DNA from: a virus
Length of the DNA stretch: 16,115 nt
Virus genome (UHGV): UHGV-1642828
Strand: one strand, 5' to 3'
Part shown: piece after piece, positions 1 through 16,115 of the stretch
How positions within the stretch are numbered: the first letter of the stretch is position 1
How the letters are laid out: each line of letters opens with the position of its first letter
The notes under the pieces: model-generated
Told to the model about the DNA's origin: nothing
Database searches by the model: none
What the model saw: the letters and a program-made list of their open reading frames with translations, nothing else
Made by a program: the position numbers and the translations under genes

Positions 1-45
1 ACACCTCTCTATTCGTCGGCAGCGTCAGATGTGTATAAGAGACAG
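1..45. other. Illumina Nextera adapter remnant (P5 tail ACAC + 8-nt index CTCTCTAT + TCGTCGGCAGCGTC + Tn5 mosaic end AGATGTGTATAAGAGACAG)
   Basis: Exact match to the recalled Nextera read-1/i5 adapter structure, and its reverse complement sits at the other contig end. Confidence 0.9.
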
Positions 46-428
46 ATGTAACAATCAATTTCTAAAGATACCCCCAACATTGCCAGACAACCGTCAATAA
101 ACCCTTCAGCTTTCTGCAGTCTGATAACAACCTGATTAAGTGATATCCCCAGTTTTACCCCCAACGCCCGTAATGTAACCCCATACACATAATACATTTC
201 CAGTAATTCGTATTGATACGGTTCCTTTTTCTTAAGAACTGTCATCGCAGAGCTAATGATCAGGCCATCGTCATCGCTACATTGCGGGCGGGATTTTACT
301 TTCGAAGGAATTAATCCCTTAAAACCTGCAGCAACAGATGACCATTCCACATCCTCGTGATTATTTGCCACCCATGCCCCCCAACGTTCAAGAACCATTT
401 GAATATCACGCATCAACTTTCTCCACAA
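46..428 (-). CDS. Phage antitermination protein Q-like (lambdoid late-gene antiterminator), 3' end truncated by adapter
   Basis: The ORF 9..428 translates to MWRKLMRDIQMVLERWGAWVANNHEDVEW...RLQKAEGFIDG, resembling recalled Q proteins of Qin/DLP12-type prophages. The last residues [11 protein letters not shown] are translated adapter, so the true C-terminus and stop are missing. It is the last gene of the minus-strand early operon, as expected for Q. Confidence 0.65.
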
Positions 429-430
429 AA

Positions 431-1426: not shown

Positions 1427-1427
1427 C

Positions 1428-2237
1428 TCAATGAACGGTATCGAGCAGCTTTAACAGCTCAGGGAATCGGGATTCGAAGAAATGCGGCTGCGTCTCACGC
1501 GGATTTGCGGGACTGGTGATGTTCTTGCCGAACATGCAGCCTTTCGCCGTCAGCGACCAGAATTTTTTGATGTTGTTAATCCCGGTACGGCTGTATCGTT
1601 CGCGCTGCTCGACGATCCCCAGCTTCACCATCTGGTGATATGCCTGATTAGCCGTCAGGCGGATACCATACTGCTTCAGCAGTGCACTCAGCGACAGCGT
1701 CGGGCGGCTTGAGCCATCAGGCGCGTCAGCAGGTGCATCAATGGCATAGCGCGGTGCCAGATTCGGTAAGCCAACAGCCTCCTGGAGTTTCTGACAGGCC
1801 CCAAGCACAGATGAGTTAGACAGATTTAACTCCCGGCGCATAAAGTCCAGCAGAATCACGCCAGCCTGCATCTTGTCAGCAGCCTGTCCGGATAATTTTT
1901 CCGGTGCGCTGGTTACCATATCGAAAGTACGGATCACCTTCAGATGGAATGACGGGCTGATCCACATTGCATAGGCATACACCAGTTCCTTACAGACATA
2001 CGTTCCCCGTTCATTTCCCCCATGAATCACACTCACCGGGTCAACACCCAAATTCTGGGTGTTGGTTAATTCATGAACAAGCTCAACAGTTTGTTGGCTG
2101 GAAAGAAACTTTCCTGGCTCCTTGGTTCTGGCATTTGCACCAGATGCTACTGCTGCGCGATGCAGATCGTTCAGGCTGTAACGCCCATAAGCATCACGAC
2201 GAACTTCAATACCATCAATAACCATCAGATTATTCAT
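1428..2237 (-). CDS. KilA-N domain protein (antirepressor-like)
   Basis: 269-aa ORF; the N-terminal ~100 aa contain VIDGIEVRRDAYGRYSLNDLHRAA ... GTYVCKELVYAYAMWISPSFHLKVI, matching the recalled KilA-N signature (GTWVH..LA..FA.WISP.F). Its stop is 2 nt from the next start. Confidence 0.65.
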   Translation of the reverse strand: MNNLMVIDGIEVRRDAYGRYSLNDLHRAAVASGANARTKEPGKFLSSQQTVELVHELTNTQNLGVDPVSVIHGGNERGTYVCKELVYAYAMWISPSFHLKVIRTFDMVTSAPEKLSGQAADKMQAGVILLDFMRRELNLSNSSVLGACQKLQEAVGLPNLAPRYAIDAPADAPDGSSRPTLSLSALLKQYGIRLTANQAYHQMVKLGIVEQRERYSRTGINNIKKFWSLTAKGCMFGKNITSPANPRETQPHFFESRFPELLKLLDTVH

Positions 2238-2256
2238 ACTTCGTTTCTCCTCTTAA

Positions 2257-2646
2257 TCAGGCGGCTGCACCCGCCGTTTTCTCGTACTTACTGATAGTGA
2301 TTTCGACCTTCCCTTCCGGGATAACCGGCCCCCACTCCACCAGCATTCTTTTCACCTGGCTGTCGTCCACCCACACACCCGCGTGGGTCAGGGCGTCAAA
2401 CAGCGCCTTGTTATAGTTGTCCAGATCGCGAAGCCGGTTATCCGGAGGAAACAACACGATCTCCACTGAAGCTGGTGCCGACGTTGGTTTCGGCAGACGA
2501 CGTAACTGCTCAATGATGGCTGCACACGCTGCGCTCTGGAATTTTCGCCCCGCCTCGCTTATCAGGCTCTTACCAGCAAATGCCCCTTTGTTGGGGTGTC
2601 GCCAGTACGTGTTCACACTGGGCGGGAAAGGAAGGATCAACTTCAT
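2257..2646 (-). CDS. rusA: Crossover junction endodeoxyribonuclease RusA (Holliday junction resolvase)
   Basis: 129-aa ORF with LPFPPSVNTYWRH ... RDLDNYNKALFDALTHAGVWVDDSQV, very close to the E. coli RusA pattern (LPWPPSNNRYY ... [26 protein letters not shown]). Its start overlaps the upstream stop (ATGA). Confidence 0.85.
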   Translation of the reverse strand: MKLILPFPPSVNTYWRHPNKGAFAGKSLISEAGRKFQSAACAAIIEQLRRLPKPTSAPASVEIVLFPPDNRLRDLDNYNKALFDALTHAGVWVDDSQVKRMLVEWGPVIPEGKVEITISKYEKTAGAAA

Positions 2647-2969
2647 ACTTTCAAGCCCCTCTCATGTAACCAGTGGGCTGCACGCAACCTGGCGTTCTCC
2701 TCACCGGCAAGCAGTGCGCGGATGATACCGACCGCTTCGCTGTCGTCGTCCTTCACTGCGGTATGAAGCGTGATCCCCCGGGCCACGCCACGCTTTATCG
2801 TGATGACGCCTTTTTTCTCCAGTGCGCGAAGATGCTCCACCGCTGCATTCACTGAACGGTATCCCAGCATGGTTGCCACCTCCTGATTGGTTGGCGGGAA
2901 GCCACGTTCTTTCTGGTAAGAAATCAGCATATCCAGCACCTGCTGCTGGCATTGAGTTAACGTCGTCAT
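2643..2969 (-). CDS. LexA DNA-binding-domain protein without a peptidase domain
   Basis: 108-aa ORF whose N-terminal 70 aa align position by position with the LexA N-terminal winged helix (LT..QQ.V.D.I......G.PPT..E.A..LG.RS.NAA.EHL.AL..KGVI.I..G..RGI.L). There is no Ala-Gly/Ser/Lys S24 domain. It is translationally coupled to the methyltransferase upstream and rusA downstream. Confidence 0.6.
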   Translation of the reverse strand: MTTLTQCQQQVLDMLISYQKERGFPPTNQEVATMLGYRSVNAAVEHLRALEKKGVITIKRGVARGITLHTAVKDDDSEAVGIIRALLAGEENARLRAAHWLHERGLKV

Positions 2970-3619
2970 GCCGCCATCTCCCTGACCAGTTTTTCCGCCT
3001 GCTGGCGAACCTGCGCCAGAAACGCCTCACCACATGCCTCAAGTTCATCACGCCCGATGTAGCTGATTGCCGGTCCCTTCCAGGTCTTGTCGAAAACAGC
3101 AATAGCGCCAGCGAAGAAAGCGCCTGTCGGCACCTGCTTATCGTCCTTCGGGATAAACCAGGCAGGCAGTTCAAAACCAATACGCCCGCGAATAAAAGCA
3201 ATATGATCCGCATCTTCCGGCCACCACACTTCGCTGGTGGCAGCTTTGATCAGGAAAACATAGCGCCCGCCCTTATCACGCATGGCACTGGCATGTTTCA
3301 TGATGTAACGCATGCCGGTGATGTATTGCCCCTCATGCTGACTGGCGCGGCTGTATGGGGGATTACCAAAGGCAGCCCCTTTAAGCTCCGCAAGACGTTT
3401 TGACCAGTCATGCGCCAGCGCGTTGTCTTCCGCCGTGTAATACGCGGCACATTTGGCGTTATCACCGTCAGTGAACAGATCCAGAACAAACGGGCCAAAC
3501 AGGGTGTTAATTCCCCAGAAAATGTTGTCCGGCGTGCGCCACTGATCGCCCACTTCCTTCAGTTCATGGGCTGGTTTGTTCCGCAGTTCCACCAGCGCCT
3601 GGCAATATTTATTACTCAT
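2966..3619 (-). CDS. Phage DNA N6-adenine methyltransferase (Dam family)
   Basis: ORF with the FGNPPYS motif (NPPY catalytic motif IV of amino-methyltransferases). The longest ORF starts at 3652, but the ATG at 3619-3617 (MSNKYCQ...) overlaps the upstream stop as TAATG and is the more likely start. Confidence 0.7.
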   Translation of the reverse strand: MSNKYCQALVELRNKPAHELKEVGDQWRTPDNIFWGINTLFGPFVLDLFTDGDNAKCAAYYTAEDNALAHDWSKRLAELKGAAFGNPPYSRASQHEGQYITGMRYIMKHASAMRDKGGRYVFLIKAATSEVWWPEDADHIAFIRGRIGFELPAWFIPKDDKQVPTGAFFAGAIAVFDKTWKGPAISYIGRDELEACGEAFLAQVRQQAEKLVREMAA

Positions 3620-4113
3620 TAAGCCCCCACGTAATTCCCTGACAGATACCACTCTTCACCTGATGCAGCCCGCTTACTGCTTTTCCGTAAACACCGTTCA
3701 CGACGCGCCAGAAAATTGTTTCGTTCTGGCTGGGAGTGGCTTTCACGGAATGCCGCCATCCACACCGTTGCAGCACGACGGTATAAGCCCCTGGACTCCA
3801 GTTCTTCCGCCTGGCGGGTCAGGCACAAAATCACCCGCGGGTCGTTAGTGCCGACATAGAAATTGCGCACAGGTCTGGTTTCACGAACTGGTTGTGGTTC
3901 CGGATCCTGCGCTCTCTCAGTCAGGCGCTGGAAATGTCTGTGTGTATCTCCTTCACAACGGTGAGCCACACGACCACTCTGACGTAACTTGCTTGCTGAC
4001 TGCAGAACGCGCTGCCGTGAGTAACCTGCAAAAGCATCCGCAATGTCTCCGGAAGTACAGCCCGGATGGGCTTCAATGAATTTCTGAACGTCATTCAAAA
4101 GACTCATGCTCAC
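3619..4113 (-). CDS. Putative regulator: N-terminal winged-helix-like region plus C-terminal PerC-like motif
   Basis: 164-aa ORF. The C-terminal AEELESRGLYRRAATVWMAAF...RRERCLRK resembles the recalled PerC/Pch signature (A..LE..GLWRRAA..W ... R..CL). Its start overlaps the replication gene stop (ATGA). Confidence 0.4.
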   Translation of the reverse strand: MSMSLLNDVQKFIEAHPGCTSGDIADAFAGYSRQRVLQSASKLRQSGRVAHRCEGDTHRHFQRLTERAQDPEPQPVRETRPVRNFYVGTNDPRVILCLTRQAEELESRGLYRRAATVWMAAFRESHSQPERNNFLARRERCLRKSSKRAASGEEWYLSGNYVGA

Positions 4114-5051
4114 CCCCTGAATCCTGCCGGGATCTGGCTGTAGTCCACATTGTCGTAACTGGCTTTGAAGTACGGGTCTTCGCGTTTTTCTGTGTACGTG
4201 CTGACGGACGGCGATAAGCGCAGGGAAAGCTCATCCCATTTTTCCCGCAGCTTCGACGGGCTGAGCACGTTACGGCACCAGAACGGATCGCGGCTGACGC
4301 GGCTGTACATCTCGCAGATTTGTTTGTGAGTACGACCATCCTGCACACACATCAGGCGAATTTCGTTTGCCCAGGCTGTCCAGTTCGGTTCTTTGGGACG
4401 AACCACCTCGCCGTCACATTCGGCAGCCTGCTCGTACAGGGCGATGATTTTTTTCCAGAGCCACTGTGCGCAGGTCAAATCATCCTGCGTTCCCCACTGG
4501 CGCTTTTTAGGGCTGAATACAACCGCATCAGGATGGCAAGTTAAAAAATCCTGTTCAGCCGTCTGCGTGTCCGGTTGCGAAGCGTCCGGACGAGAAGGTT
4601 TTTTATCTGACGGATCATGTTTTGATTTTACTGACGGATCCCCGCCAGATTCTGACGGGTGAAAACCCGATTTTTTGCCAGATTTCGACGCATCAAATTT
4701 TGACGGGTCAGATTTTGATGCGTCAGATTTTGACGGGTCAGAATCTGACAGTTGAGAAAATGCCGCTGCCTGAAGCTTCGCAACGTTAAGCTGATAAACA
4801 TTCGACGCATTGCGGTTACCCTGGCGACGCGCCTTACGCGTTAACCAGCCTTCTGCTTCCAGCCGTGCGATAGCCGTTCTGACGGTGCTCATCCCCGCGC
4901 CAATCTGGCGGGCAATGGTTTCAATTGATGGCCAGCACATACCTTCGTCATTACTGAAATCAGCCAGGCGGGCCATAATTGCCACGCTGGATAATTTCAT
5001 ACCTGACGCTGCACAACCATCCCATACATAGCCGGTTAATTTAGTGCTCAT
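4110..5051 (-). CDS. Phage replication initiation protein (N-terminal HTH, Ser/Asp/Lys repeat linker, C-terminal domain)
   Basis: 313-aa ORF with an N-terminal HTH-like region (SIETIARQIGAGMSTVRTAIARLEAEGWL), a central DPSKSDASKSDPSKFDASKS repeat encoded by 15-bp tandem DNA repeats, and a conserved-looking C-terminal domain. It occupies the O-gene position after the cro/cII-like genes. Confidence 0.55.
   Translation of the reverse strand: MSTKLTGYVWDGCAASGMKLSSVAIMARLADFSNDEGMCWPSIETIARQIGAGMSTVRTAIARLEAEGWLTRKARRQGNRNASNVYQLNVAKLQAAAFSQLSDSDPSKSDASKSDPSKFDASKSGKKSGFHPSESGGDPSVKSKHDPSDKKPSRPDASQPDTQTAEQDFLTCHPDAVVFSPKKRQWGTQDDLTCAQWLWKKIIALYEQAAECDGEVVRPKEPNWTAWANEIRLMCVQDGRTHKQICEMYSRVSRDPFWCRNVLSPSKLREKWDELSLRLSPSVSTYTEKREDPYFKASYDNVDYSQIPAGFRG
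4602..4755. repeat. Iteron-like tandem repeats inside the replication gene (candidate origin)
   Basis: Four contiguous in-phase 15-bp units at 4681-4740 (GATTTCGACGCATCA, AATTTTGACGGGTCA, GATTTTGATGCGTCA, GATTTTGACGGGTCA), flanked by degenerate copies containing CTGACGG at 4605-4617, 4631-4640, 4651-4660 and 4741-4751. Confidence 0.5.
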
Positions 5052-5060
5052 GACCGACCC

Positions 5061-5399
5061 CTATTTCCCTGAATTTACGACGAAACTGTTCGAGCGGACT
5101 GAAGCATTCATGCTCATAGCCTTCACGGAGGTAGATAACACGTTGTGTTTCCGGCTCCCAACGAATGACTCTGACGGGCACTCAGTAGTGATCTTTGAAC
5201 CAGCGGTTAACTTGTTGCAAAGGACTGTCTCCTTCTGCCGGTTGAAATCACCCACAGCCCACTCGGCAAAGCTGTGGGTTACAATTTCCCTGTCACCTGG
5301 TACATTCACTGCATAGCAATACTCCACCTTCGCTTTTCCACCCGGTACAGGAAGCGCAATCAGTTGCGAGCGACGGTAGTGTGTTGTTAAACTGTTCAT
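5061..5399 (-). CDS. Hypothetical protein (small ORF between the YdaT-like and replication genes)
   Basis: 112-aa ORF whose start overlaps the ydaT-like stop (ATGA) and which ends 10 nt before the replication gene start. No family recognised. Confidence 0.4.
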
Positions 5400-5980
5400 G
5401 CGTTAGTTTCTCCACAGTCACGACACGCCACGGCGCCCGGAGCTGCACACTCGCGGGCGTCATTACTTTCTGAAATGCAAAAGATTTTGTAGACCAGTGC
5501 TGCATGCTCCTGCAGCTTCGAAATTGAGAGATACAGCTCGTCGTTAATTGCTGTCTTCTCATGCGGTTCCACCACACCGTCTTCGATTGCCGAACGAATC
5601 TGTCTGGAATAACTGCCAATCTGTTCAATGACTTCCAGCAGGCGCTTGTTAATATCGGCGTTGTCCACATCCTCGACGTCAGGAAGAGACACAAAGACGC
5701 CATTTGCAGACTGCGCCACAGCGTCAGCAATGAAGTGAGTTCCACCAGCACGTTGCAAAACCATTGCCAATCCCAGCGGGAAAATCTGATCGCCATCGGC
5801 ACGAAGGCGGTTAAATAATGCGTTCTCTGTTACATCCAGCCAGTCAGCAGCTTCAGCGTAACCACCCGGCAACGCCGCGATAGTTTTTCTGACAGCTTTC
5901 ACGTACCACTCAGGCTGTTTTTCTACTTTCCAGTGATGCTTACCCACGGCTATCTCCTTAAAACTGTGGTTACTTTCCAT
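5396..5980 (-). CDS. YdaT-like protein (cII-position regulator of Rac-type prophages)
   Basis: 194-aa ORF immediately downstream of and overlapping the YdaS/Cro-like gene, in the same arrangement as ydaS-ydaT in the Rac prophage. Assignment is by synteny and general resemblance only. Confidence 0.5.
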
Positions 5981-6218
5981 CTGATAAGTCTTTAATCTTT
6001 TGAAAAATATCTGGACGTAATTTTTCTTTTGATACGCCAGTGGTCATTTCAATAAATATCGAGAGTTTTGCAGGGGGACGCTTTTCTCTGTTCAACCAGT
6101 TCCAGACATGTTGTTGCTTTACTAAACGACCACTGCTGGCTGTGAGCTTCCGAGCCAATTCTGATTGACCACCAGCCAGAGCGATTGCCTCTGATAAGGC
6201 TAATTGCTCAGGTGTCAT
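5970..6218 (-). CDS. Cro-like HTH regulator (YdaS/DUF1019-like)
   Basis: 82-aa ORF, first gene transcribed divergently from cI. It contains GGQSELARKL ... RLVKQQHVWNWL ... LRPDIF, resembling recalled YdaS. A GGAGA Shine-Dalgarno lies 6 nt upstream of the ATG. Confidence 0.65.
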   Translation of the reverse strand: MTPEQLALSEAIALAGGQSELARKLTASSGRLVKQQHVWNWLNREKRPPAKLSIFIEMTTGVSKEKLRPDIFQKIKDLSDGK

Positions 6219-6355
6219 AGCTTTCTCCTATCTGTAAGTAGTAAAGTTGTTGATAACTTCGATTATACAACTACAACAACTTTTATCACAACTTTTAGAT
6301 GTTGGAAAGCTAAAACATAAAGTTGTAACCTCAATAAAAACGAGGGGGATATGTT
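6219..6355. promoter_or_regulatory. Divergent promoter/operator region (OR-like) between the cro-like gene and cI
   Basis: 137-bp AT-rich spacer with repeated AAGTTGT / ACAACTT half-sites (6244-6259 AAGTTGTTGATAACTT; 6288-6304 ACAACTTTTAGATGTTG; 6320-6326). On the minus strand there is a perfect -10 TATAAT (plus 6262-6267) with TTGTGA as -35 (plus 6286-6291, 18-bp spacer), reading toward the cro-like gene. A possible weak cI promoter lies toward 6356. Confidence 0.6.
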
Positions 6356-7042
6356 GTGAAAACATTGGCAGAAAGACTAAAAAGCGAAAGAGAAAAAGCA
6401 GGAATGAGTCAGGCGCAACTAGCTGAAAAAATTGGGCTTTCACAACAATCCGTAGCGAAAATCGAGAATGGAGAAACTCAACAGCCTCGGAAAATTAAAG
6501 AGATTGCTAAAGTGTTAGGGGTTTCTCAAAAGTGGTTGCAATTGGGCATTGAGGATAACGCGTCTTTCCCAGACCTTGTTGTAAAGGAGGCTGAAAGTAC
6601 AGCATTAGATCCTGACATTTTTGCAAACATTCCAGTCCTAGATGTCGAGTTATCAGCGGGTAATGGATGTTTGGCTGAAATAGTTGAATCAACTGTAGAC
6701 TGGTTCCCGCTAAGAAGGATTGATTTAAGAAAAGCTGGTGTATGTGTCTCCAATGCAAAGATCGTAAAAATTTGGGGCAATAGTTTACTACCTGTACTTA
6801 ACAATGGAGATTTTGTTGCTGTTGATGTTTCCCAAACGGTTCCTATTCGTGATGGGGATCTTTATGCCATACGTGATGGCGTATTACTTAGAGTTAAAAT
6901 ATTGATCAATTTACCTGACGGTGGTCTGATTCTAAGAAGTTTCAATAAAGATGAGTATCCAGATGAAATACTCACCTTCGAAGATAGGCGTTCAAGAATT
7001 CACGTTATAGGTAGAGTATTCTGGTCATCGCGCACTTGGTAA
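6356..7042 (+). CDS. cI: cI-type prophage repressor (HTH XRE domain + LexA-like S24 autopeptidase domain)
   Basis: 228-aa ORF with a GTG start preceded by GAGGGGGA. It has an N-terminal HTH (MSQAQLAEKIGLSQQSVAKIENGE), an Ala-Gly cleavage site (LSAGNG), a Ser in GNSLLP and a Lys in LRVKIL, which is the LexA/cI autocleavage architecture. Confidence 0.85.
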   Translation: MKTLAERLKSEREKAGMSQAQLAEKIGLSQQSVAKIENGETQQPRKIKEIAKVLGVSQKWLQLGIEDNASFPDLVVKEAESTALDPDIFANIPVLDVELSAGNGCLAEIVESTVDWFPLRRIDLRKAGVCVSNAKIVKIWGNSLLPVLNNGDFVAVDVSQTVPIRDGDLYAIRDGVLLRVKILINLPDGGLILRSFNKDEYPDEILTFEDRRSRIHVIGRVFWSSRTW

Positions 7043-7225
7043 TGCATCAAAAAACCTTCCTTCAGAAATTTAGTTACCATTATTACCCGCCTTTTCAATC
7101 TTCCTCCCGTGATTTGAGAGTTTCCAATCACGGAAGGAAAGTGTCCCTTGTGTAATTAAAAGCGCATCGTCCATACAACCTCCTTTTTTGATAACCCTTG
7201 CCCTCATTTCACATCCGTCAAAACC

Positions 7226-7290
7226 ACATAAAGTTGTTGACAACAACCAAAACAACAACTAGATTACAACTTAAAGATGTTGCAGTAACG
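7226..7290. promoter_or_regulatory. OL/PL-like operator-promoter for the plus-strand early operon
   Basis: Consensus -35 TTGACA at 7237-7242 and -10 TAGATT at 7260-7265 (17-bp spacer). A perfect 13-bp palindrome TTGTTGACAACAA (7235-7247) overlaps the -35, and the 17-bp element ACAACTTAAAGATGTTG (7266-7282) at the start site matches the OR-region copy at 15 of 17 positions. Confidence 0.55.
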
Positions 7291-7383
7291 AACAGGCAGG
7301 ACGCCCACGAAGTAGCCGCCGGTGGCGTATGAATGACCGGATGATTCGCTGACAGAAAACTTAGGTTGGGGGTAGAGGTTTAC

Positions 7384-7749
7384 ATGAATCATTTATTCAC
7401 ATGCTCATTTTGCGGAGCAACCGAACTGGGAGCGATAAAGATCGTCGCAAAAGGTGGTAAGGACGAACCTGCCATCTGTTCGGAATGCGTAGTCACATGT
7501 GTAGAAAAAATGATCCTGACTAAAAAATCAGAGGCTGAAAAACCAACCTCTGATAACGAAATAATATCAGTCGATAAAAAACTATTTAAAGAGCTTCTTC
7601 AGCTTGTCCTCAACCTTCCTGATTTCGGAAGTAAGCTGGCTGCTGTTGACATTGATAGTAGCTCCACATCGACAAGTGAAACTTTTGTTCGACTTGAGCC
7701 AAGCGATTTTCTTCTTCGTCTTAGTGCCGCACTTAGGGCATGCGGGTAA
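7384..7749 (+). CDS. Small protein with an N-terminal ClpX-type C4 zinc-finger motif
   Basis: Starts MNHLFTCSFCGATELGAIKIVAKGGKDEPAICSECVVTCVEKMI; compare the recalled ClpX N-domain [36 protein letters not shown]. GAGG lies 6 nt upstream of the ATG at 7384; the longer ORF from 7366 uses TTG and has no Shine-Dalgarno. It is the first gene after the PL-like promoter. Confidence 0.55.
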   Translation: MNHLFTCSFCGATELGAIKIVAKGGKDEPAICSECVVTCVEKMILTKKSEAEKPTSDNEIISVDKKLFKELLQLVLNLPDFGSKLAAVDIDSSSTSTSETFVRLEPSDFLLRLSAALRACG

Positions 7750-7872
7750 CGTAATTTCCTGGTTATCAAAAGCGCCCATAAACATCCCTCTTGGTTGTGT
7801 GAGAACACCAAGATACCACCGCGCCTGATGTGGTTAAAAGCAGGCTAAAGCAATAACAAGTAACTCCCTGTT

Positions 7873-7922
7873 CTGGCGGCCCGGTGTTTTCCCGTGTATT
7901 TCCGGTAACCGCCAGCCTTTTT
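7873..7922 (+). terminator. Candidate intrinsic terminator (tL1-like) between the first early gene and rdgC
   Basis: Inverted repeat CTGGCGG/CCGG (7873-7884) with CCGG/CCGCCAG (7902-7915) around a 17-nt loop, followed by CCTTTTTC (7916-7923). Confidence 0.4.
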
Positions 7923-8091
7923 CAGGGCACAACAGAAAAGGGCATCACCGGGCGACGGGCTCATAACCCAATCCACCCGGGCAAAAAGAAAGCGGTCTCT
8001 GCAAGCCGCCGACCAATGCAGGTGCCCTTCTCTGTTGTGTATGGAGAAACTAACTTTTTAGCGCCGGTGCAGAGGCGTTGAGGAACCGAGA

Positions 8092-9009
8092 ATGAACAAT
8101 CCGTTTTTCAAAAATATGTTGGTGTATCGCATTAATCGCGATTTCACCATCAACCAGGAAGAGCTGGAACAGCAGCTTGAACTATTTCGCTTCACTCCAT
8201 GCGGTAGCCAGGATATGGCAAAAACCGGTTGGGTATCACCACTTGGTCAGCTGTCAGATCGCTTGCATCACACTGTCAATAATCAAGTGTTGTTGGTTAT
8301 TCGCCGGGAAGAAAAAATACTGCCATCTCCTGTCATTGCTGAAGAACTGCGCAAGCGTGTGTCGCGTCTGGAATCCGATCAGGGGCGTCGCCTCAAAAAA
8401 ACTGAGAAAGATTCGCTGCGTGATGAAGTGTTGCACTCCCTGCTTCCTCGGGCGTTCTCCAAAAACTCGACTGTTAGTTTGTGGATCAACGTCACCGACG
8501 GTCTGATCATGGTTGATGCAGCCAGCGCTAAACGTGCCGAAGACTCACTGGCCCTGCTTCGTAAAACTCTCGGTTCTCTCCCGGTGGTACCGCTGACTAT
8601 GGAAACGCCGATCGAACTAACTATGACCGAATGGGTTCGTTCCGGTAGTGCGCCTGCTGGCTTTGGCCTGGGTGATGAAGCCGAACTGAAAGCTATTCTT
8701 GAAGATGGTGGTATTGGACGCTTTAAAAAACAGACTCTGGTCAGTGACGAAATTCATGTGCATCTGGAAGCTGGCAAAGTAGTTACAAAGCTGTCTATCG
8801 ACTGGCAACAGCGCATTCAGTTCGTTCTTTGCGATGACGGCAGCATCAAACGCCTTAAGTTCTCTAATGAGATTACAGAACAAAACGACGATATCGACCG
8901 TGAGGATGCGGCTCAGAGGTTCGACGCTGACTTTGTTCTGATGACCGGCGAGCTTATCTCTCTCATTAACGGATTAACAACCTCTCTCGGCGGCGAAGCC
9001 AAGCGATAA
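8092..9009 (+). CDS. rdgC: Recombination-associated protein RdgC homolog
   Basis: 305-aa ORF with long identities to E. coli RdgC ([117 protein letters not shown]). GAGGAA Shine-Dalgarno upstream. Confidence 0.9.
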
Positions 9010-9117
9010 ACACCAGGCAACAATTACCCCCATAAGCATGGGTTGGGTTGCTGCACGCTAAATTCAGCAATTCATTAATTTAATGGCGCGGTGCAGCGCG
9101 CCAATATGGAGAAAACC

Positions 9118-9657
9118 ATGAGCTACATTCAGACATTATCCGGCAAACATTTTAATTACCTCGATATCCAACAGGACGATATCGTGATCGAGGATATTGC
9201 TACCGCGTTGTCTCATATCTGCCGCTTTGCAGGGCATCTTCCTGAGTTTTACAGCGTCGGCCAGCATAGCGTTTTAACCAGCCATCTCGTTCCGCAGGAG
9301 TTTGCCTTAGAAGCACTGCTTCATGATGCCGCCGAAGCCTACCTGCAAGATATTCCCTCACCGCTTAAGCGCCTGTTACCGGATTACCAGGTGATCGAAG
9401 CTCGCGTAGACGCTGCTATTCGCCAGAAATTTGGCCTACCGACGGAGCAACACCCAACAGTGAAATATGCCGATCTGGTGATGCTCGCCAGCGAACGCCG
9501 CGATTTTGAGATTGACGAAGGTTCCGTGTGGCCATGCCTCGATGGCGTTGTCCCGACGGACCTATTCATCATCAATCCAGTTCGTCCAGGCCAGTCATAC
9601 GGCATGTTCATAAATCGCTTTAATGAGTTGATGGAGCAGCGTCAATGCGCCGCATGA
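9118..9657 (+). CDS. HD-domain phosphohydrolase
   Basis: Contains H...H (ALSHICRFAGH) followed about 35 aa later by HD (LLHDAAEAY), the metal-binding pattern of the HD superfamily. GGAGA lies 9 nt upstream of the ATG at 9118; the longest ORF starts at 9091. Confidence 0.5.
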   Translation: MSYIQTLSGKHFNYLDIQQDDIVIEDIATALSHICRFAGHLPEFYSVGQHSVLTSHLVPQEFALEALLHDAAEAYLQDIPSPLKRLLPDYQVIEARVDAAIRQKFGLPTEQHPTVKYADLVMLASERRDFEIDEGSVWPCLDGVVPTDLFIINPVRPGQSYGMFINRFNELMEQRQCAA

Positions 9658-9821
9658 AGGTAAAAGAACTCGTGGCGGAGGCGTTTGCCTCCGTGGCTGA
9701 ATTGCCACCAAAGCATGCATCGCTTATGCGCGAAGTCGCTACCAGGCTTGAAGCTACGTTCGCAGCATTAACCGAATCATTGGCGCAACTGGAACAGGAA
9801 CGTAAAGGTAAAACGCAATGA
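9654..9821 (+). CDS. Small hypothetical protein (55 aa), translationally coupled on both sides
   Basis: Not in the ORF track (below its length cutoff). ATG at 9654 overlaps the HD gene stop (ATGA) and its TGA overlaps the next gene's ATG at 9818 (ATGA). Translates MKVKELVAEAFASVAELPPKHASLMREVATRLEATFAALTESLAQLEQERKGKTQ. Confidence 0.35.
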   Translation: MKVKELVAEAFASVAELPPKHASLMREVATRLEATFAALTESLAQLEQERKGKTQ

Positions 9822-10072
9822 CCGTATTTGAATATCTCCAGGGCCACCCGAACGCCACCAGCGGTGAAATCGCAAGGGCGATGGGTAAAAAGACGCCAGC
9901 CGTAGCCAGCGCACTATCTCAGCTTTATGCAACAGGGAGAATTGTTAAGTCTGGCGCACGCGGTGGGATACCGACATACCGCGTCAATGATCTGCCGTTT
10001 GGATGCAGCAATAACTTAACGCTGATATTTAACCAGCTTCTGCGAAACGTCCGCAAAGGAGCAGCCCAATGA
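9818..10072 (+). CDS. Hypothetical small protein, possible winged-helix DNA-binding protein
   Basis: 84-aa ORF with a wHTH-like segment (ATSGEIARAMGKKTPAVASALSQLYATGRI); overlapping start/stop coupling with neighbours. Confidence 0.45.
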   Translation: MTVFEYLQGHPNATSGEIARAMGKKTPAVASALSQLYATGRIVKSGARGGIPTYRVNDLPFGCSNNLTLIFNQLLRNVRKGAAQ

Positions 10073-10386
10073 GCAAATTTACGGCATTACCAGTAGAACG
10101 CGACCAATACGGCTACTGGACTCACCCCGTCTATGAGCAATTTTGCGATGGTCGTGAATTTATCTCACCTGATGAGTTCAACGCCTGGCTGGATAAAAAC
10201 GGCCTCGAATGGACGGTAGTTTACCGGGATGAAGAAGACATCGATCCTGAAGTTGATGGTTACGATATTTCAGCCTGGCAGCCAGAATCGCCAGCCGGTG
10301 AAGGTTGGTTTGTCGGTTCAATTCACAACACCGAAGATGGCGCGGTATGCATCTGGTTACGTAACGTTGAAGGCGGTGCAGCATGA
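10069..10386 (+). CDS. Hypothetical protein
   Basis: 105-aa acidic ORF, translationally coupled (overlapping stops/starts) within the early-left operon. Confidence 0.45.
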   Translation: MSKFTALPVERDQYGYWTHPVYEQFCDGREFISPDEFNAWLDKNGLEWTVVYRDEEDIDPEVDGYDISAWQPESPAGEGWFVGSIHNTEDGAVCIWLRNVEGGAA

Positions 10387-11141
10387 CAGTCCATACACTG
10401 AAGCAATGCCGCCCGGACCAAGAAGAAACCGAGTATTTCTGGAAGTTGTTTCATGCGGCACAACGGAATGACGCTCGCTGGAACGGTAGTGAAATCAGCA
10501 TTATCGCCGATGAACTATCCCGGACGGATTTAGATCGTAATCAAAAACTGTTTCTTCTCCGTGCCTGGCAAGTGCTGGTAGACGACAAAGGTGGATTCGG
10601 GCGCTTGATGGGTGCCTTTGATACTTACGTCTACAACATGCAGGACCCTGATGATGACTGCGTAGCCTGGAAGCCTGAACTGGCTAAGCTGCTACAGGAT
10701 GGCAATCTGTTTGATGTTGTGCTGACGGCATATCAGGAGGCCTGCCATGAGGGGATCGTTAATTGGGAGGCAGCGGTATCTCTTTCTGAGGAAAACGTAG
10801 AACTGAAGCGCAAACTCTACGCAGCAGAGAATCAAATAGCAGAACTGGAGGCGCGGACGTTCAATCCTGCAATTCTAGATGTGATAGCAGAGCGCCAGCG
10901 GCAGAAAGCCGTTGAGGGCTGGACGTCTGAGCATGACGACGCCTATCAAAACAGTGAGCTGGCAGATGCTGCAGCTTGCTATGCGATTAACGCACACAAT
11001 CAAGGCCTCTCAACGCCAGCGCATTGGCCGTGGGCTCCTGATTGGTGGAAGCAATCTGGGCCGCGTCGTGACCTTGTGAAAGCTGGCGCACTTATTCTGG
11101 CCGAAATTGAACGCATAGACCGCCAGGAGGCCGCCCAATGA
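10383..11141 (+). CDS. Hypothetical protein (Trp-rich C-terminal region, coiled-coil segment)
   Basis: 252-aa ORF, coupled to neighbours; contains AENQIAELEAR and HWPWAPDWWK. No family recognised. Confidence 0.5.
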   Translation: MTVHTLKQCRPDQEETEYFWKLFHAAQRNDARWNGSEISIIADELSRTDLDRNQKLFLLRAWQVLVDDKGGFGRLMGAFDTYVYNMQDPDDDCVAWKPELAKLLQDGNLFDVVLTAYQEACHEGIVNWEAAVSLSEENVELKRKLYAAENQIAELEARTFNPAILDVIAERQRQKAVEGWTSEHDDAYQNSELADAAACYAINAHNQGLSTPAHWPWAPDWWKQSGPRRDLVKAGALILAEIERIDRQEAAQ

Positions 11142-11530
11142 GCAACATCAACAAACGCGCAACAGAGATGCTGATTGAAAACGGAGTGCTGGTTGCCGAC
11201 ACGCTGAGGCGTTTGGCTGATAACGAAATCGACTCCGATTACTTTGCTATTTGCCACACAAACGAAAACGGAACTGAAATTGAATGCGAGCTGGCAATTA
11301 CAGATTACGCACGCCAATCTGCTGGAATCGTTGATGATCTGGTAAATGCGCTGGAAGCCGCAGAGAAGCGCATTGCAGAACTGGAAGCGCGGGAAATATC
11401 GCTCCCAGAACTTAGCAGCATGCTTCATCGAACAGATTTTCACGAGGATTACCAAACGGTAATGGCATACAAAGTTTCTGAGGTCATCGCTGCAATCCGC
11501 GCCGCTGGCATTCGCATCAAAGGAGAGTGA
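11138..11530 (+). CDS. Hypothetical protein
   Basis: 130-aa ORF, coupled; shares the EKRIAELEAR heptad-like motif with the preceding gene. Confidence 0.5.
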   Translation: MSNINKRATEMLIENGVLVADTLRRLADNEIDSDYFAICHTNENGTEIECELAITDYARQSAGIVDDLVNALEAAEKRIAELEAREISLPELSSMLHRTDFHEDYQTVMAYKVSEVIAAIRAAGIRIKGE

Positions 11531-11531
11531 T

Positions 11532-11966
11532 ATGGCGTTAACACACCGCGAACTCTGTCAGATTGCGTACAAGTTCCTTAAGCGCAACGGGTTCAAGGTT
11601 TGTTTTCATGACCGCTTTATAGCTGTAACCAGTACCGGAGAACAGCCAGATGCTATGGGATTCAGAAATTCAGCATCATGCCTGATAGAGGCGAAATGTT
11701 CTCGTGCTGACTTGTTGGCAGATAGAAAAAAGCGTTTTCGTAAAAATCCGTCTCTTGGAATGGGCGACTGGCGATTCTTTATTAGTGAGCCGGGAATTAT
11801 TTCAATTGAGGATTTACCACCTGGCTGGGGATTACTTCACGTTGTTAACGGAAGAGTACGGAAAGTGCATGGGTGCCCAAGGGTAATTGCTGTTGGGGTA
11901 ATCCTGACGATAAGCCATTTACTGGAAATAAGCAGGTTGAATGCGATTACATGTTATCTGCATTAA
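11532..11966 (+). CDS. Hypothetical protein with a possible PD-(D/E)xK nuclease-like motif; the 3' end may be frameshifted
   Basis: 144-aa ORF containing GEQPDAMGF...CLIEAKCS (a D ... ExK arrangement). A second reading frame opening after the stop at 11846-11848 encodes a plausible C-terminus (...GNCCWGNPDDKPFTGNKQVECDYMLSALRRMELRGHLNEIYDGVIVNKKEGNAA) and ends at 12044-12046 in an ATGA overlap with the next gene. Confidence 0.4.
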   Translation: MALTHRELCQIAYKFLKRNGFKVCFHDRFIAVTSTGEQPDAMGFRNSASCLIEAKCSRADLLADRKKRFRKNPSLGMGDWRFFISEPGIISIEDLPPGWGLLHVVNGRVRKVHGCPRVIAVGVILTISHLLEISRLNAITCYLH

Positions 11967-12042
11967 GGCGCATGGAGTTGAGAGGGCACCTTAATGAAAT
12001 ATATGACGGTGTAATTGTTAATAAGAAAGAAGGAAACGCGGC

Positions 12043-12744
12043 ATGATCACTATTACCAAAGAGCGACTGCTGACAATCAAGCAGTGGCGCGAAACATACG
12101 GACCTGGTAGCAACGTTGTACTGCCAGCAGAAGAAGCGGAAGAACTGGCACGAATTGCTCTGGCATCGCTGGAAGCAGAGCCTATTGGTGAGGTTTCAGA
12201 GAAGCGACTCGGCCTTGTTATGGATGGAACGGTAGACCTTGGCGGGAAATCAACTTATCGCATCATTAAGGGAGAAAAAGCGATGAAGTTGTTGCCGCTG
12301 GGGACGAAGTTTTATGCCGCCCCTCCAGTGCCAGTAGTACCGGAAGAAAAACCAATGCCTAATCCTCTTAGCATGTACGCGGTTGATGCTTTTGCCGCTA
12401 TTGCAGAGGTGAGAGGCTGGAACGCCTGCCGTGCCGCTATGCTTCAGGGTAAATCCGAACAACCACAAAACGCACAACAAAATATTCCGGAAAATATTCA
12501 CGGTGGCAACTCTCCGGTAACTCCGGATGGTTGGATAAGCTGTAGTGATCGAATGCCGGAAAAGAATCAGAACGTGCTTATTTCAGTGAATTTCGATAGC
12601 TCTCTGGTTGAACCGCTAATATGCTCCGCACGCTATACCGGAAGCACCTTTCGGCGCGGAGATGCAACGATTAAGCCGGGTAATGGTATTGAGCAAGCAA
12701 CTCACTGGATGCCGCTACCGGAACCGCCGCAGGAGGTGAAGTAA
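12043..12744 (+). CDS. DUF551-like phage protein
   Basis: 233-aa ORF whose C-terminal part (GWISCSDRMPEKNQNVLISV ... ATHWMPLPEPPQEV) matches the recalled DUF551 signature ending in W.PLPEPP. Confidence 0.5.
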   Translation: MITITKERLLTIKQWRETYGPGSNVVLPAEEAEELARIALASLEAEPIGEVSEKRLGLVMDGTVDLGGKSTYRIIKGEKAMKLLPLGTKFYAAPPVPVVPEEKPMPNPLSMYAVDAFAAIAEVRGWNACRAAMLQGKSEQPQNAQQNIPENIHGGNSPVTPDGWISCSDRMPEKNQNVLISVNFDSSLVEPLICSARYTGSTFRRGDATIKPGNGIEQATHWMPLPEPPQEVK

Positions 12745-13316
12745 TGAATAACTTAATGATCGACCTTGAGACGATGGGGAAAAATAAGGATGCACCGATC
12801 GTTTCCATTGGCGCGGTGTTCTTCACTCCAGAAACCGGAGACATCGAACAAGAATTCTATACGGTTGTTAGCCTGGAAAGTGCTATGGAGCAAGGAGCTA
12901 CACCTGACGGCGATACCATCCTGTGGTGGTTGAAACAGAGCTCTGAAGCACGAGCTGCAATCTGTATTGATGATACTTTGTCGATCAGCGATGCACTCTC
13001 TGAACTGAGCCATTTCATTAATCAGCATGCAGACAATACAAAATATTTAAAAGTCTGGGGTAACGGGGCCACCTTCGACAACGTAATTTTACGTGGAGCT
13101 TACGAGCGAGCAGGACAAATCTGCCCGTGGGCGTACTGGAATGACCACGATGTACGCACGATCATTACGCTTGGGCGTTCCATCGGATTCGACCCAAAAA
13201 TGGACATGCCTTTCGATGGCGAACGGCACAACGCCCTGGCTGATGCCCGTCATCAGGCAAAATATGTTTCCGCTATCTGGCAGAAACTAATTCCTGCCAC
13301 CAGCACAGAATTATGA
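12744..13316 (+). CDS. 3'-5' exonuclease (DEDDh / DnaQ-like fold)
   Basis: 190-aa ORF with N-terminal IDLETMG (Asp-x-Glu) and C-terminal HNALADARHQ (His-x4-Asp), as in DEDDh exonucleases. TAATG overlap with the upstream gene. Confidence 0.65.
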   Translation: MNNLMIDLETMGKNKDAPIVSIGAVFFTPETGDIEQEFYTVVSLESAMEQGATPDGDTILWWLKQSSEARAAICIDDTLSISDALSELSHFINQHADNTKYLKVWGNGATFDNVILRGAYERAGQICPWAYWNDHDVRTIITLGRSIGFDPKMDMPFDGERHNALADARHQAKYVSAIWQKLIPATSTEL

Positions 13317-13352
13317 TTTTCCCGGGTGCAGCCGGTTTTGATGGAGAAAATT

Positions 13353-13634
13353 ATGAACACCTTGTTTTTACTGATGGCTGAATTCAATACCCCTAACATT
13401 GAACTCTCAGCAGTTAGCCAGAAGTACTTTGGCATGAGTCCAGCCACGGCAGAAGCAAAAGCAAACGCTTGTAAGTTGCCCGTTCCAACATATCGCATCG
13501 GCACATCACAAAAAGCAAAACGTTGCATCAATATTCAGGATCTTGCGGAATACATAGACAAAAGACGAGAAGAAGGACGTATCGAGTGGGAACAGGTCAG
13601 AACAGGCAAACAGAAGGGCAAAGAACATCACTAA
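13353..13634 (+). CDS. PrtN-family / excisionase-like DNA-binding protein
   Basis: ORF track gives 13326..13634; GGAGA 5 nt upstream favours the ATG at 13353 (MNTLFLLMAEF...). It is the last gene of the early-left operon, followed directly by a terminator. Family assignment is from recalled PrtN-type excisionase resemblance. Confidence 0.5.
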   Translation: MNTLFLLMAEFNTPNIELSAVSQKYFGMSPATAEAKANACKLPVPTYRIGTSQKAKRCINIQDLAEYIDKRREEGRIEWEQVRTGKQKGKEHH

Positions 13635-13636
13635 AG

Positions 13637-13663
13637 AAAAAACCCGCCTGAAGGCGGGTTTTC
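13637..13663. terminator. Bidirectional rho-independent terminator
   Basis: AAAAAA-CCCGCC-TGAA-GGCGGG-TTTTC: a perfect 6-bp GC stem (13643-13648 / 13653-13658) with a 4-nt loop, flanked by an A-run and a T-run. It terminates both the plus-strand operon and the convergent small minus-strand gene. Confidence 0.75.
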
Positions 13664-13681
13664 AAAAAGCACCAGCTATGA

Positions 13682-13855
13682 TCATGCTGCTTTGCGACGA
13701 CGAAGCTTACCCTGCTGCTCTTTACCAGAGACAGTAGCGTGAGTGAACGCATTAGGAGCAGCCTTCATCAGAACTTCAACAGCAGCACCCATACCTGCGA
13801 ATGCTTTCATTGTGTCGAACTTAACCTGTGGCTTGGTTGCTTTTTGATCTTTCAT
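13682..13855 (-). CDS. Small hypothetical protein (57 aa)
   Basis: Not in the ORF track (below its length cutoff). ATG at 13855-13853 with GGGAG about 8 nt upstream. Translates MKDQKATKPQVKFDTMKAFAGMGAAVEVLMKAAPNAFTHATVSGKEQQGKLRRRKAA and ends just before the bidirectional terminator. Confidence 0.4.
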   Translation of the reverse strand: MKDQKATKPQVKFDTMKAFAGMGAAVEVLMKAAPNAFTHATVSGKEQQGKLRRRKAA

Positions 13856-14051
13856 AGAAAACTCCCGAGACAGTAAAGGCGTCTCTAACCCTCTCTTTAA
13901 AGCTAGCTTGTTTCGCTAACTTATGCCAATCGATCATGTCGATTGGTGACATCGTTTCTTAGTAGTTTAAGCACAAAACGACTGCCATAGATGTACCTTT
14001 AAGGTAATCTGGACGGGTATCCTACAATTTGTAGACCCTTCTCGTCTATAC

Positions 14052-14588
14052 CTACTGAGCAAATTTAAGAAAGATATCCTGCAGCTCATCAATGACTGCA
14101 GACATCACATAACCGCACTGTTCCATGCGGAAACCAAAAGACTCGTAATACTGCACCAGTTCTGGTACTGGCTCTACAATGTGGACAACTTTACATTCAA
14201 CAGCTTTACAAAATATAAAAGCACTCATAAGAGTGAGTAAAACCATGCGCCCTTTCAATGGGTGAGATTCATCTTCTCTAGAAAACCTTTCGATCATATG
14301 GATACGAAAGATGTTTTCTTCAACCCCATAAACACAAATTGCTGCTCCTGATGGTATTCCCTGAACCCGACCTTGCTGAACAAGTTTTATGCAGAACTCA
14401 TACTTTTCTCTGGAGTTGCCATAGGTGCTTAACGCATAGTCCCATTCAAGCTCACCATAGCCACCACACAGAATCTTGTAATCATCATCACTGAGCGGAC
14501 CAACAGCAAGAGGTAAGCCGACATGATCAATAATCAACTGGATATTGTTACGTACTGATTGACCTATCTCGTCCAGGGTAAGCATCAT
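14052..14588 (-). CDS. Hypothetical protein (178 aa), weak GNAT-like resemblance
   Basis: Isolated ORF in the AT-rich block; two adjacent ATG codons at the start. A minus-strand TATAAT (plus 14618-14623) lies about 25 nt upstream. It contains QQGRVQGIPSG and a C-terminal VQYYESFGF, loosely reminiscent of GNAT motifs A and B. Confidence 0.45.
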   Translation of the reverse strand: MMLTLDEIGQSVRNNIQLIIDHVGLPLAVGPLSDDDYKILCGGYGELEWDYALSTYGNSREKYEFCIKLVQQGRVQGIPSGAAICVYGVEENIFRIHMIERFSREDESHPLKGRMVLLTLMSAFIFCKAVECKVVHIVEPVPELVQYYESFGFRMEQCGYVMSAVIDELQDIFLKFAQ

Positions 14589-15126
14589 GGCCTCTCAAGC
14601 GGAACACTAAAAGTCGCATTATATCTCATTCTTAAGCCGCGTATGGATTACACCTTGAAATGAAAACGCCGGGTTCCCAATAGGCTCCCACAGAGTGTAT
14701 AACTACTTGTTTTTCAACAACGGTACATCCTATCGAGCATTGGTGCAACGCTAAACCGACCACTCCAGTGAACGTCAGTTTTTTCAGGCATTGCGCTGGT
14801 TTGGTTGATTTTTTGCATTTCAGAATTACCGTGCATTTTCAAATGTAGAGATTATTTTATCGATATATCATGGGGTTATGTTATTCAGCATCACTGTTCA
14901 GGAGGCTCAATAACGGGGTACTATACCATAACAACAGGAAGCGCCTGTCTCATTGCAAAAGAAAATTGAGATCCTCTCAAGGCATGAAGCTCTCACGAAG
15001 TGATGGAAATAATCTTATTAGCCGTTAGCTTTGTTAAGGCCAATGATAAACAATCCAGGTTCGACGATAAATAAAAATCACACATTAAACTCCGGTGATA
15101 TCTCTCCCTGCTAATAGCACTGATAG

Positions 15127-15162
15127 AGAAAAAAAGAACCCAATAAGCATTGGGTTCTTTTA
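15127..15162 (-). terminator. Rho-independent terminator downstream of the 248-aa gene
   Basis: Perfect 10-bp stem AGAACCCAAT / ATTGGGTTCT (15135-15144 / 15149-15158) with a 4-nt loop. The plus-strand A-run at 15127-15135 gives a long U-run on the minus-strand transcript. Confidence 0.65.
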
Positions 15163-15198
15163 TGTAATGCCTTCCATACCATCGAAGAACTTCACATA

Positions 15199-15945
15199 TT
15201 ATTTCTCCGATTTAACCCCGAATAAATCATAAATTAATTTAGAAGTGTCTGTATATATTTTAATCTTTTCCTTTGAGTTTGGGTCAAACGACTTAGCAAA
15301 GTCAATTAATTTCGGTGCAGCATCTCGCATTTTGCTTAAAATATCAGGGGCGAGCTTTCCTTCATTCACCAGATGTGACATCTTATCCAGATAGCCATCA
15401 AAATTCATTTCTCCCCCATCTGCCAGACGCTTCATCTCTCCCAGGTACTTCTTCATATCACGTTGAGATAACTCTTCAAACTGAGCTGTCAGATAGTTCT
15501 CATTATCATCATTAATATTCACTTTTTCTGCTCCTGCTAAATCTGTGTAGGCACTAGAGTATGAAAGTGAAATCAACAGCGAAGCGAATAATTTTAAGCT
15601 GTTGTCATCATATTCCTGACATGCATTAACAAACGTTAAAAAACCAGAACCTATTGCTTGCAAATGTATATTCGCTAAAGGTTCATTATCTTTAGATTCC
15701 TCATAAAAAAGCTGAACCGTGGAGGGAAGGCCATTCTTGGTTTCTACATCAAAAGTATATCGTTCTATGGGCGTTGCATCTTTATTATCCTCAGGATTAC
15801 ATATACTATTAATCGCAAAATGAAAAATAGCCCGATCAACAACTGATGCAATAAATTCACGATCGTTTAATTCCTCATCAGTGCAATCTCCAATATACTT
15901 ATTAACCCACTCTTTGAGATTAGTTATTTGCTCAATTAAAAACAC
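15199..15945 (-). CDS. Hypothetical protein (248 aa), AT-rich cargo gene
   Basis: Long ORF in strongly AT-rich sequence with its own downstream terminator. No family recognised from sequence. Confidence 0.5.
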
Positions 15946-16071
15946 ATTTTTTTACGTGCATGCCATAAATTATGAGTGATTCTTTGAATAAACAAATCTA
16001 TTTTTGCAATAATTATATCCCGATGACGCAGCGCTGAATAATCAATAGACTTACCATATATATTATTTAAT

Positions 16072-16115
16072 CTGTCTCTTATACACATCTGACGCTGCCG
16101 ACGAATAGAGAGGTG
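16072..16115. other. Illumina Nextera adapter remnant, reverse complement (CTGTCTCTTATACACATCT + GACGCTGCCGACGA + ATAGAGAG + GTG)
   Basis: Exact reverse complement of the adapter at positions 1-45, minus one terminal base. Confidence 0.9.

Follow-up and report, generated by a model that had tools for sequence, protein, structure and literature searches.

The window analysed here is the whole 16,115-nt stretch of the UHGV virus genome UHGV-1642828, which is an Escherichia coli lambdoid prophage, and the subject of this report is its block at 13664-16071. As an interpretation made without database searches (the sequence-only reading) correctly described, the plus-strand early-left operon ends at a PrtN-family excisionase gene (xis) followed by a hairpin, beyond which lie three minus-strand open reading frames (ORFs) of 57, 178 and 248 codons. 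The block is made up of phage DNA (1.07 kb), a crossover core of 8 bp and chromosomal DNA (1.33 kb), followed by adapter (Table 1). We interpret the region as the attL end of an mEp460-like lambdoid prophage inserted in the 5' end of E. coli dusA (probability about 85%), the tRNA-dihydrouridine synthase gene. The general architecture, with an attL in dusA, the integrase gene int at the far end of the prophage and host DNA beyond the junction, is close to certain.

The extent of the host part was determined by a megablast search of 14600-16072 against 5426 complete E. coli genomes. The region 14733-16072 is matched in 4318 of them, whether or not the prophage is present, and in prophage-free genomes the match begins at 14733, runs over an intact dusA and continues into the DUF2713 gene. 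This starting point falls inside dusA codons 33-35, as expected for an insertion in the 5' end of the gene. In a four-way alignment of the window (attL), strain MB06233 (attB), phage mEp460 (attP) and E. coli O157:H7 TR01 (attR), the window is attP-like up to 14732, the octamer TCGAGCAT at 14733-14740 is common to all four sequences, and the window is attB-like from 14741 onwards. At the reciprocal junction, taken from E. coli O68:H12 strain 97.3, phage sequence runs until ATGCTCGA and host sequence follows. The att repeats thus seen comprise the identical 8-bp core and a diverged repeat of the dusA 5' end of ~100 bp. The orphaned dusA fragment in the window is translated as MHGNSEMQKINQTSAMPEKTDVHWSGRFSVAPMLD, followed across the junction by RMYRC and a stop codon at 14716-14714, and RefSeq labels it 'tRNA-dihydrouridine synthase, incomplete' in related genomes.

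The phage part of the block (13660-14720) is 99.2% identical to Enterobacteria phage mEp460 (NC_019716 / JQ182728), with which the window shares xis, gp24, gp23 and the attP arm. In other respects the window is mosaic relative to mEp460, and only 12504-14839 and a short 88% stretch align to the 19-kb mEp460 segment. The mEp460 genes are ordered as exonuclease, xis (gp25, annotated as excisionase), then gp24 (57 aa) and gp23 (178 aa) on the other strand, attP, int (gp22) and dinI, with int located 340 bp beyond gp23 and the attP region between them. The mEp460 attP bears dusA codons 1-35 in a diverged copy that encodes MHDNPEIQKTNQTSVMPEKTGAYWSSRFSIAPMLD. Because attP lies between xis and int, integration moves int to the opposite end of the prophage. 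Recombination in the 8-bp core breaks the phage map between gp23 and the integrase gene. Int thus comes to lie at attR, ~44 kb away, where the dusA start brought by the phage makes the host gene whole again, and the native dusA promoter and first 35 codons stay at attL, pointing into gp23 and gp24.

The arrangement of int in related lysogens agrees with this scheme. The closest whole prophage, that of strain 97.3, matches window positions 46-16071 at 97.7-99.5% identity except for the immunity module (~5460-7286), and its tyrosine integrase gene (WP_000332265.1) adjoins an intact dusA in divergent orientation, with 44.5 kb separating it from the excisionase gene. The same layout is found in TR01, where the integrase WP_000332269.1 is encoded beside dusA, and in Salmonella dusA prophages. 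Both 97.3 and TR01 encode an intact 345-aa DusA with a phage-type N-terminus (the first 35 residues in strain 97.3); these are relatives, and attR lies outside the window. The earlier observation that no integrase follows xis therefore holds for the window, but int has not been replaced: in lysogens it is at attR beside dusA.

Insertion of this kind has been described for the dusA-specific integrases (DAI), whose elements enter the 5' end of dusA, provide a substitute for it and strand the original dusA start at the far junction (Farrugia et al. 2015, NAR, PMC4482086). The att repeats of these elements are semi-conserved and 21 bp long. The present prophage shares with DAI prophages and islands the insertion in the dusA 5' end, the replacement 5' end, a tyrosine integrase adjoining dusA, the orphan fragment at the other junction and imperfect direct repeats as flanks, and differs from them in nothing essential. 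This published mechanism, together with the GenBank phage genome, fully accounts for the host gene, the junction and the 'missing' integrase. Added to the DAI picture are the exact 8-bp crossover in this E. coli phage group, a conserved arm of ~70 bp, and an orphaned host promoter facing the cargo. The arm has a 58-bp match in three other phages, and its heptamer GGTTCCC/GGGAACC occurs in four copies within 230 bp around the mEp460 attP. One copy is in the attL arm and three are in the int-proximal arm (mEp460 record positions listed 10013, 10211, 10223, 10239); these heptamers are candidate arm-type integrase sites.

Two points weigh against the attL interpretation. Since attR and int fall outside the window, their presence in the strain of origin is deduced from near-identical genomes, and strain 81, the genome most similar to the region (99.4% identity), carries a rearranged prophage. 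In the strain 81 locus (L001, 1-1126) the genes for the integrase, DinI and a recombinase-family protein are located only ~6 kb upstream of the excisionase gene, and this prophage looks deleted or rearranged relative to that of strain 97.3.

Table 1. Features of the window, with positions counted from its first nucleotide
Feature	Position	Strand	Details
Early-right operon	cro 5970-6218 through to Q-type antiterminator 9-428	-	
cI-type repressor gene	6356-7042	+	
Early-left operon		+	Includes rdgC (8092-9009) and 3'-5' exonuclease gene (12744-13316); last gene is the PrtN-family excisionase gene
PrtN-family excisionase gene (xis)	13326-13634	+	PF11112, E 4.2e-23; phrog_1300 'excisionase', E 8e-40
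G+C-rich hairpin	13638-13663		Common to the convergent xis and 57-aa genes; 11-bp stem, 6 GC pairs
57-aa basic protein gene	13682-13855	-	mEp460 gp24; WP_000654815.1; phrog_2741, E 8e-36
Spacer between cassette genes	13856-14051	-	196 bp; palindromes CTACAAATTGTAG and CCAATCGA-N5-TCGATTGG
178-aa acidic protein gene	14052-14588	-	mEp460 gp23; WP_000956557.1; phrog_4350
Phage-derived attP arm kept in attL	14671-14732		Contains GGTTCCC (14672-14678); kept in every cargo variant (six-way alignment)
attL crossover core	14733-14740		TCGAGCAT (ATGCTCGA in dusA sense; codons Met-Leu-Asp of APMLDW)
Orphaned host dusA 5' end	14714-14836	-	Native codons 1-35 at 14732-14836, followed by 5 codons from the phage and a stop
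Native dusA upstream region	14837-15125	-	99.9% identical to empty-site genome MB06233
Intrinsic terminator of host DUF2713 (yjbM)	15132-15161	-	13 pairs, then T-run
Host DUF2713 gene	15199-16071	-	PF10897, E 3.9e-144; frameshifted; 5' 150 nt lost to adapter
Nextera mosaic end and i5 adapter (library artefact)	16072-16115; inverted copy 1-45		Exact CTGTCTCTTATACACATCT at 16072, reverse complement at 27

The 248-aa ORF (15199-15945, GTG start) is the 3' part of the host DUF2713 gene, which sits between dusA and zur in the E. coli genomes examined. Alignment with an intact 340-aa allele reveals a 1-nt deletion (T7 at 15947-15953 on the plus strand, versus A8 in the gene sense), so the ORF is the downstream frame of a split gene with yjbL-like and yjbM-like ORFs, yjbL and yjbM being the K-12 names of the two halves. 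RefSeq records the frameshift in MB06233, the K-12 lineage and strain 81; in many strains the gene is kept at 318-340 aa, with a KD-rich repeat at its N-terminus. A literature search on the RefSeq accessions, the PHROG identifiers and DUF2713/yjbM in E. coli returned nothing useful.

The interval between xis and attP varies in content among sister prophages, as a comparison of related prophages proposed in the sequence-only reading bears out. A search with 13326-14740 found 741 E. coli genomes with the excisionase gene, 357 of which have the complete order xis-57-178-att; when the match ranking was sampled at even intervals, about one quarter matched only via the 57-aa gene and about one quarter only via xis. 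The 178-aa and 57-aa genes are present as a pair in about half of the related E. coli dusA prophages and in ~6-7% of the complete E. coli genomes, with O157:H7, O111 and O145 strains among them. Elsewhere the slot holds the gene for the antitoxin-type protein PanA (Panacea, PF13274) with genes for a 128-aa and the 57-aa protein (loci L014 and L015, and phage Lys8385Vzw), the same set with an added CoiA-like gene (L020), PanA with a 182-aa protein gene and no 57-aa gene (L016, L017 and L022), or a gene for a 189-aa protein with a YafO-family toxin gene (L021). The 189-aa protein, encoded upstream of the YafO-family toxin gene, shows no similarity to the 178-aa protein by BLASTP. PanA/PanT modules have been described by Kurata et al. 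2022 (PMC8832971).

The boundaries of the slot are fixed, with xis on one side and the ~70-bp att arm next to the core (14671-14740, including GGTTCCC) on the other, and all cargo genes share the orientation of the orphaned dusA 5' end. The slot is a sharply bounded hotspot for mostly toxin-antitoxin (TA)-type pairs. The variable-hotspot (moron) part of the earlier proposal thus stands for 13664-14670, but does not extend to the host part. Like phage morons, a concept due to Hendrix and Juhala, the two-gene cassette is small, is present or absent among close relatives between conserved flanks (xis and the 70-bp arm), occupies other intergenic positions in unrelated phages, has its own terminator and has a G+C content below that of its neighbours; it differs in that its transcription may come partly from a captured host promoter and not from a moron promoter. 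In E. coli KP63 (L022, 4405-5916) the PanA gene lies directly beside zur, and both the dusA 5' fragment and the DUF2713 gene are unannotated, suggesting a deletion across attL and the host gene.

The 57-aa homologue is encoded 93-196 bp downstream of the 178-aa homologue in each context where the pair was found: in Salmonella dusA prophages, at a prophage end in Pseudescherichia vulneris, between the replication/nin genes and the holin gene of Edwardsiella tarda prophages, inside the tail/baseplate module of a Photorhabdus myovirus-type prophage, and in Shewanella frigidimarina (39% identity for the 178-aa and 29% for the 57-aa protein). The pair behaves as a mobile cassette, its genes travelling together at unrelated prophage positions.

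The 178-aa protein is predicted to have the GNAT alpha/beta fold, based on a confident AlphaFold (AF2) model (predicted local distance difference test, pLDDT, 93.5). The RefSeq start is the second ATG at 14585, which gives 177 aa and better fits the GAGAGG Shine-Dalgarno sequence. A search of a viral fold library with the model returned only generic GNAT proteins. At the sequence level the protein has no Pfam or NCBIfam match at E <= 0.1-1, and hence no curated GNAT family model; its family profile gives only chance matches among PDB sequences (gp41 constructs, designed armadillo proteins). A profile search of 1.84 billion representatives retrieved only 93 relatives, and ten distant ones among them lack a Pfam domain, so no sequence bridge to a named GNAT family was found. 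The structural check suggested earlier therefore yields a fold but no named family. Across 29 sequences, 25 positions are invariant, including H97, E100, the loop H109-P-L-x-G113-x-M115 before alpha3 and Y148-x-x-x-G-F, with Y148 in alpha4; E139 after beta5 is at least 90% conserved. E139 and Y148 correspond in position to E103 and Y115 of RimI. The conservation of H97, E100, the HPLxG loop, E139 and YxxxGF suggests an active enzyme.

The 57-aa protein is basic (pI 10.5), with the core FDTxKAFAGMGAAVEVLMKAAP and the C-terminus RRRKAA. Its 48 homologues share 68-98% identity across Enterobacterales, and 19 positions are invariant over 17 sequences. The AF2 model is poor (pLDDT 61) with a single helix at residues 15-37, and gp24 is predicted to be a conserved, basic, mostly unstructured peptide. 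No match to it was found in Pfam, NCBIfam or PADLOC.

The spacer between the two genes contains CTACAAATTGTAG, a perfect palindrome, and CCAATCGA-N5-TCGATTGG, an 8-bp inverted repeat overlapping the -35-like TTGGCA of a weak promoter-like site before the 57-aa gene (TTGGCA-18-TAGCTT). These palindromes may be operator sites for a regulator. In an alignment with the spacers of Salmonella, P. vulneris and E. tarda, the second palindrome and the TTGG(C/T)A...TA(G/C)CTT spacing are only partly conserved, and no Rfam match to 13856-14051 reaches threshold.

A promoter-like site facing the cassette lies in the dusA upstream region at 15037-15009 (TTAACA-17-GATTAT, 9/12 consensus matches); a weak site upstream of the 178-aa gene consists of TATAAT at 14623-14618 without a -35 element. 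All these candidate promoters are consensus matches. The earlier view that each gene forms its own transcription unit is not borne out: the only terminators detected follow the 57-aa gene and yjbM, and the stretches separating the 178-aa gene from the 57-aa gene and from the dusA fragment showed none. The minus-strand tail of the hairpin at 13638-13663 is TTTTTTCTTT, and the T-run is better on this strand, so the hairpin probably terminates mainly the 57-aa transcript. The lack of an intervening terminator, together with the common orientation of all slot variants, suggests that the lysogen transcribes the cassette, with part of the transcription due to read-through from the dusA promoter. Integration would in effect swap promoters: the native dusA promoter region (14837-15125) would face the cassette and be read through into gp23 and gp24, and the rebuilt dusA would be driven from phage DNA, as suggested by Farrugia et al. 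for their elements (PMC4482086).

As to function, our tentative preference, held at somewhat less than even odds, is that the acidic GNAT enzyme and the basic 57-aa protein are an enzyme-partner pair working like the TA modules of the same slot, in prophage maintenance or abortive infection. The charges are complementary (pI 4.8 versus 10.5), and strict co-inheritance of the pair down to 29-39% identity fits mutual dependence. The narrower proposal that the pair is a previously undescribed two-component TA or anti-phage module, with expression tied to lysogeny through the captured dusA promoter that integration sets upstream of it, is rather unlikely. One possible form would be an enzymatic, type VII-like module whose acetyltransferase either neutralises the small basic protein or is under its control. 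Like PanA/PanT and YafO-type TA modules, the cassette occupies this slot; unlike the cargo of the sister prophages, neither of its proteins contains Panacea (PF13274).

Several findings count against a TA-like pair. The acetyl-CoA motif Q/RxxGxG/A is only partly kept (HPLKGRM), and the GNAT protein is acidic (net charge -10), a property not known from tRNA-acetylating GNAT toxins. The genes lie 93-196 bp apart and do not overlap, and in some prophages the 57-aa gene follows the genes for PanA and the 128-aa protein, with no GNAT gene present. No Pfam, NCBIfam or PADLOC match points to a TA-like function; a PADLOC-DB 2.0 scan of the three proteins gave no defence-system match at E <= 1, and a literature search on GNAT-based anti-phage systems found nothing matching the pair.

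Some of these same properties would suit a non-toxic lysogenic-conversion module, a doubtful but serious alternative, in which the GNAT protein would acetylate some target of the host or of a phage, either a small molecule or the N-terminus or a lysine of a protein, with the 57-aa protein as substrate, specificity factor or regulator, and the lysogen benefits without addiction or abortive infection. An acidic enzyme with a lysine-rich basic partner, a gene spacing suggestive of partly independent promoters, and the existence of the 57-aa gene without its companion are all compatible with such a module. However, the slot in sister prophages holds almost only TA-type pairs, the strict co-inheritance noted above is harder to accommodate, and no target can be named.

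A GNAT toxin of the classical type (TacT, AtaT, KacT), acetylating aminoacyl-tRNA and accompanied by the 57-aa protein as a labile antitoxin in reversed gene order, is improbable. The cassette resembles the TacAT, AtaRT and KacAT systems in being a two-gene prophage module with a GNAT-fold protein; Tyr148 is conserved at the YxxxGF position, that of the catalytic Tyr of AtaT and TacT, and RRRKAA at the end of the 57-aa protein resembles the tails reportedly recognized by ClpX (Flynn et al. 2003). In contrast to those systems, the place upstream is taken by the attP arm and not by an RHH (ribbon-helix-helix)/DUF1778 antitoxin gene, and the partner, which lacks a Pfam domain, is encoded downstream (196 bp away in the window, 93-196 bp overall) without overlap. 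The enzyme is strongly acidic, has no sequence-level GNAT family match, and is no more similar to the toxins than to many other GNATs.

Very improbable is the proposal of the sequence-only reading itself, that 13664-16071 is a single acquired AT-rich island of three cargo or defence genes standing where an integrase should be, or displacing it. The G+C content of the block is indeed low (39.2%, compared with 48.2% for the whole window and 49.1% for the early-left operon), the window contains no integrase ORF, and none of the three ORFs has a named function. However, the composition is uneven, with 43.0% in the phage part (13664-14732) and 36.0% in the host part (14741-16072), and the strongest AT-richness lies in the host yjbL/M region and not in phage cargo. 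The empty-site comparison refutes a single island: sequence from 14733 onwards occupies the same chromosomal place in prophage-free genomes, so the supposed three-gene block is two things, phage up to 14732 and E. coli chromosome from 14741, and DUF2713 did not arrive with the phage. Int is intact in mEp460 and in lysogens, beyond attP or attR. Orphan status is retained by the 57-aa and 178-aa proteins, which have no Pfam match, but not by the 248-aa ORF, a host DUF2713/yjbM gene (PF10897). The supposed 610-bp gap without an ORF above 40 codons (14589-15198) holds the attP arm, the attL core, the dusA 5' ORF and the dusA upstream region, and five ORFs of 42-54 codons are found there in the program-made list. 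That the two phage ORFs are leftovers without function, or were wrongly called in a spacer beside the att site, as the missing family annotation and the poor 57-aa model might hint, is scarcely credible, given that both are intact and clearly constrained in many genera (19 and 25 invariant positions in the 57-aa and 178-aa proteins), are kept as a pair in at least five genomic contexts, and include one confidently modelled protein (pLDDT 93.5).

The remainder of the window contains further features of the prophage and of its sequencing. Both ends carry adapter (ACAC CTCTCTAT TCGTCGGCAGCGTC AGATGTGTATAAGAGACAG and its reverse complement), and the real genome is therefore 46-16071; this leaves the final residues of the Q-antiterminator ORF, and the DUF2713 5' end, artefactual or missing. 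The immunity region (~5460-7286, encoding cII-like, Cro and CI proteins) does not align to the prophage of strain 97.3, the stretch 6219-7365 has a G+C content of 39.8%, and ~5460-7286 looks like a swapped immunity module, in keeping with typical lambdoid mosaicism. The first early-left ORF (7366-7749) has as its counterpart in strain 97.3 a gene labelled 'ClpX C4-type zinc finger protein', which is unusual for the lambda N position. An Rfam scan of 13300-16115 gave only sub-threshold matches, centred on the terminator hairpin. The ArcA-regulated small RNA sRNA-17 was reported in an mEp460-like prophage of E. coli RS218, where its deletion derepressed yfdP and yfdR (PMC7719688), suggesting a location in or near an immunity region; its sequence is absent from the window, and it was ruled out as a feature of it.

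The main value of these results is corrective: what appeared to be an integrase-less prophage with an orphan island is the normal outcome of an attP located between xis and int in dusA-integrating phages. The presence in the block of host DNA that runs into adapter matters for annotating prophage borders or scoring cargo by composition. Two smaller points may merit follow-up, the bounded hotspot between xis and attP, and the family-less GNAT-fold protein of this widespread two-gene cassette, which is always paired with a 57-aa basic protein from E. coli to Shewanella.

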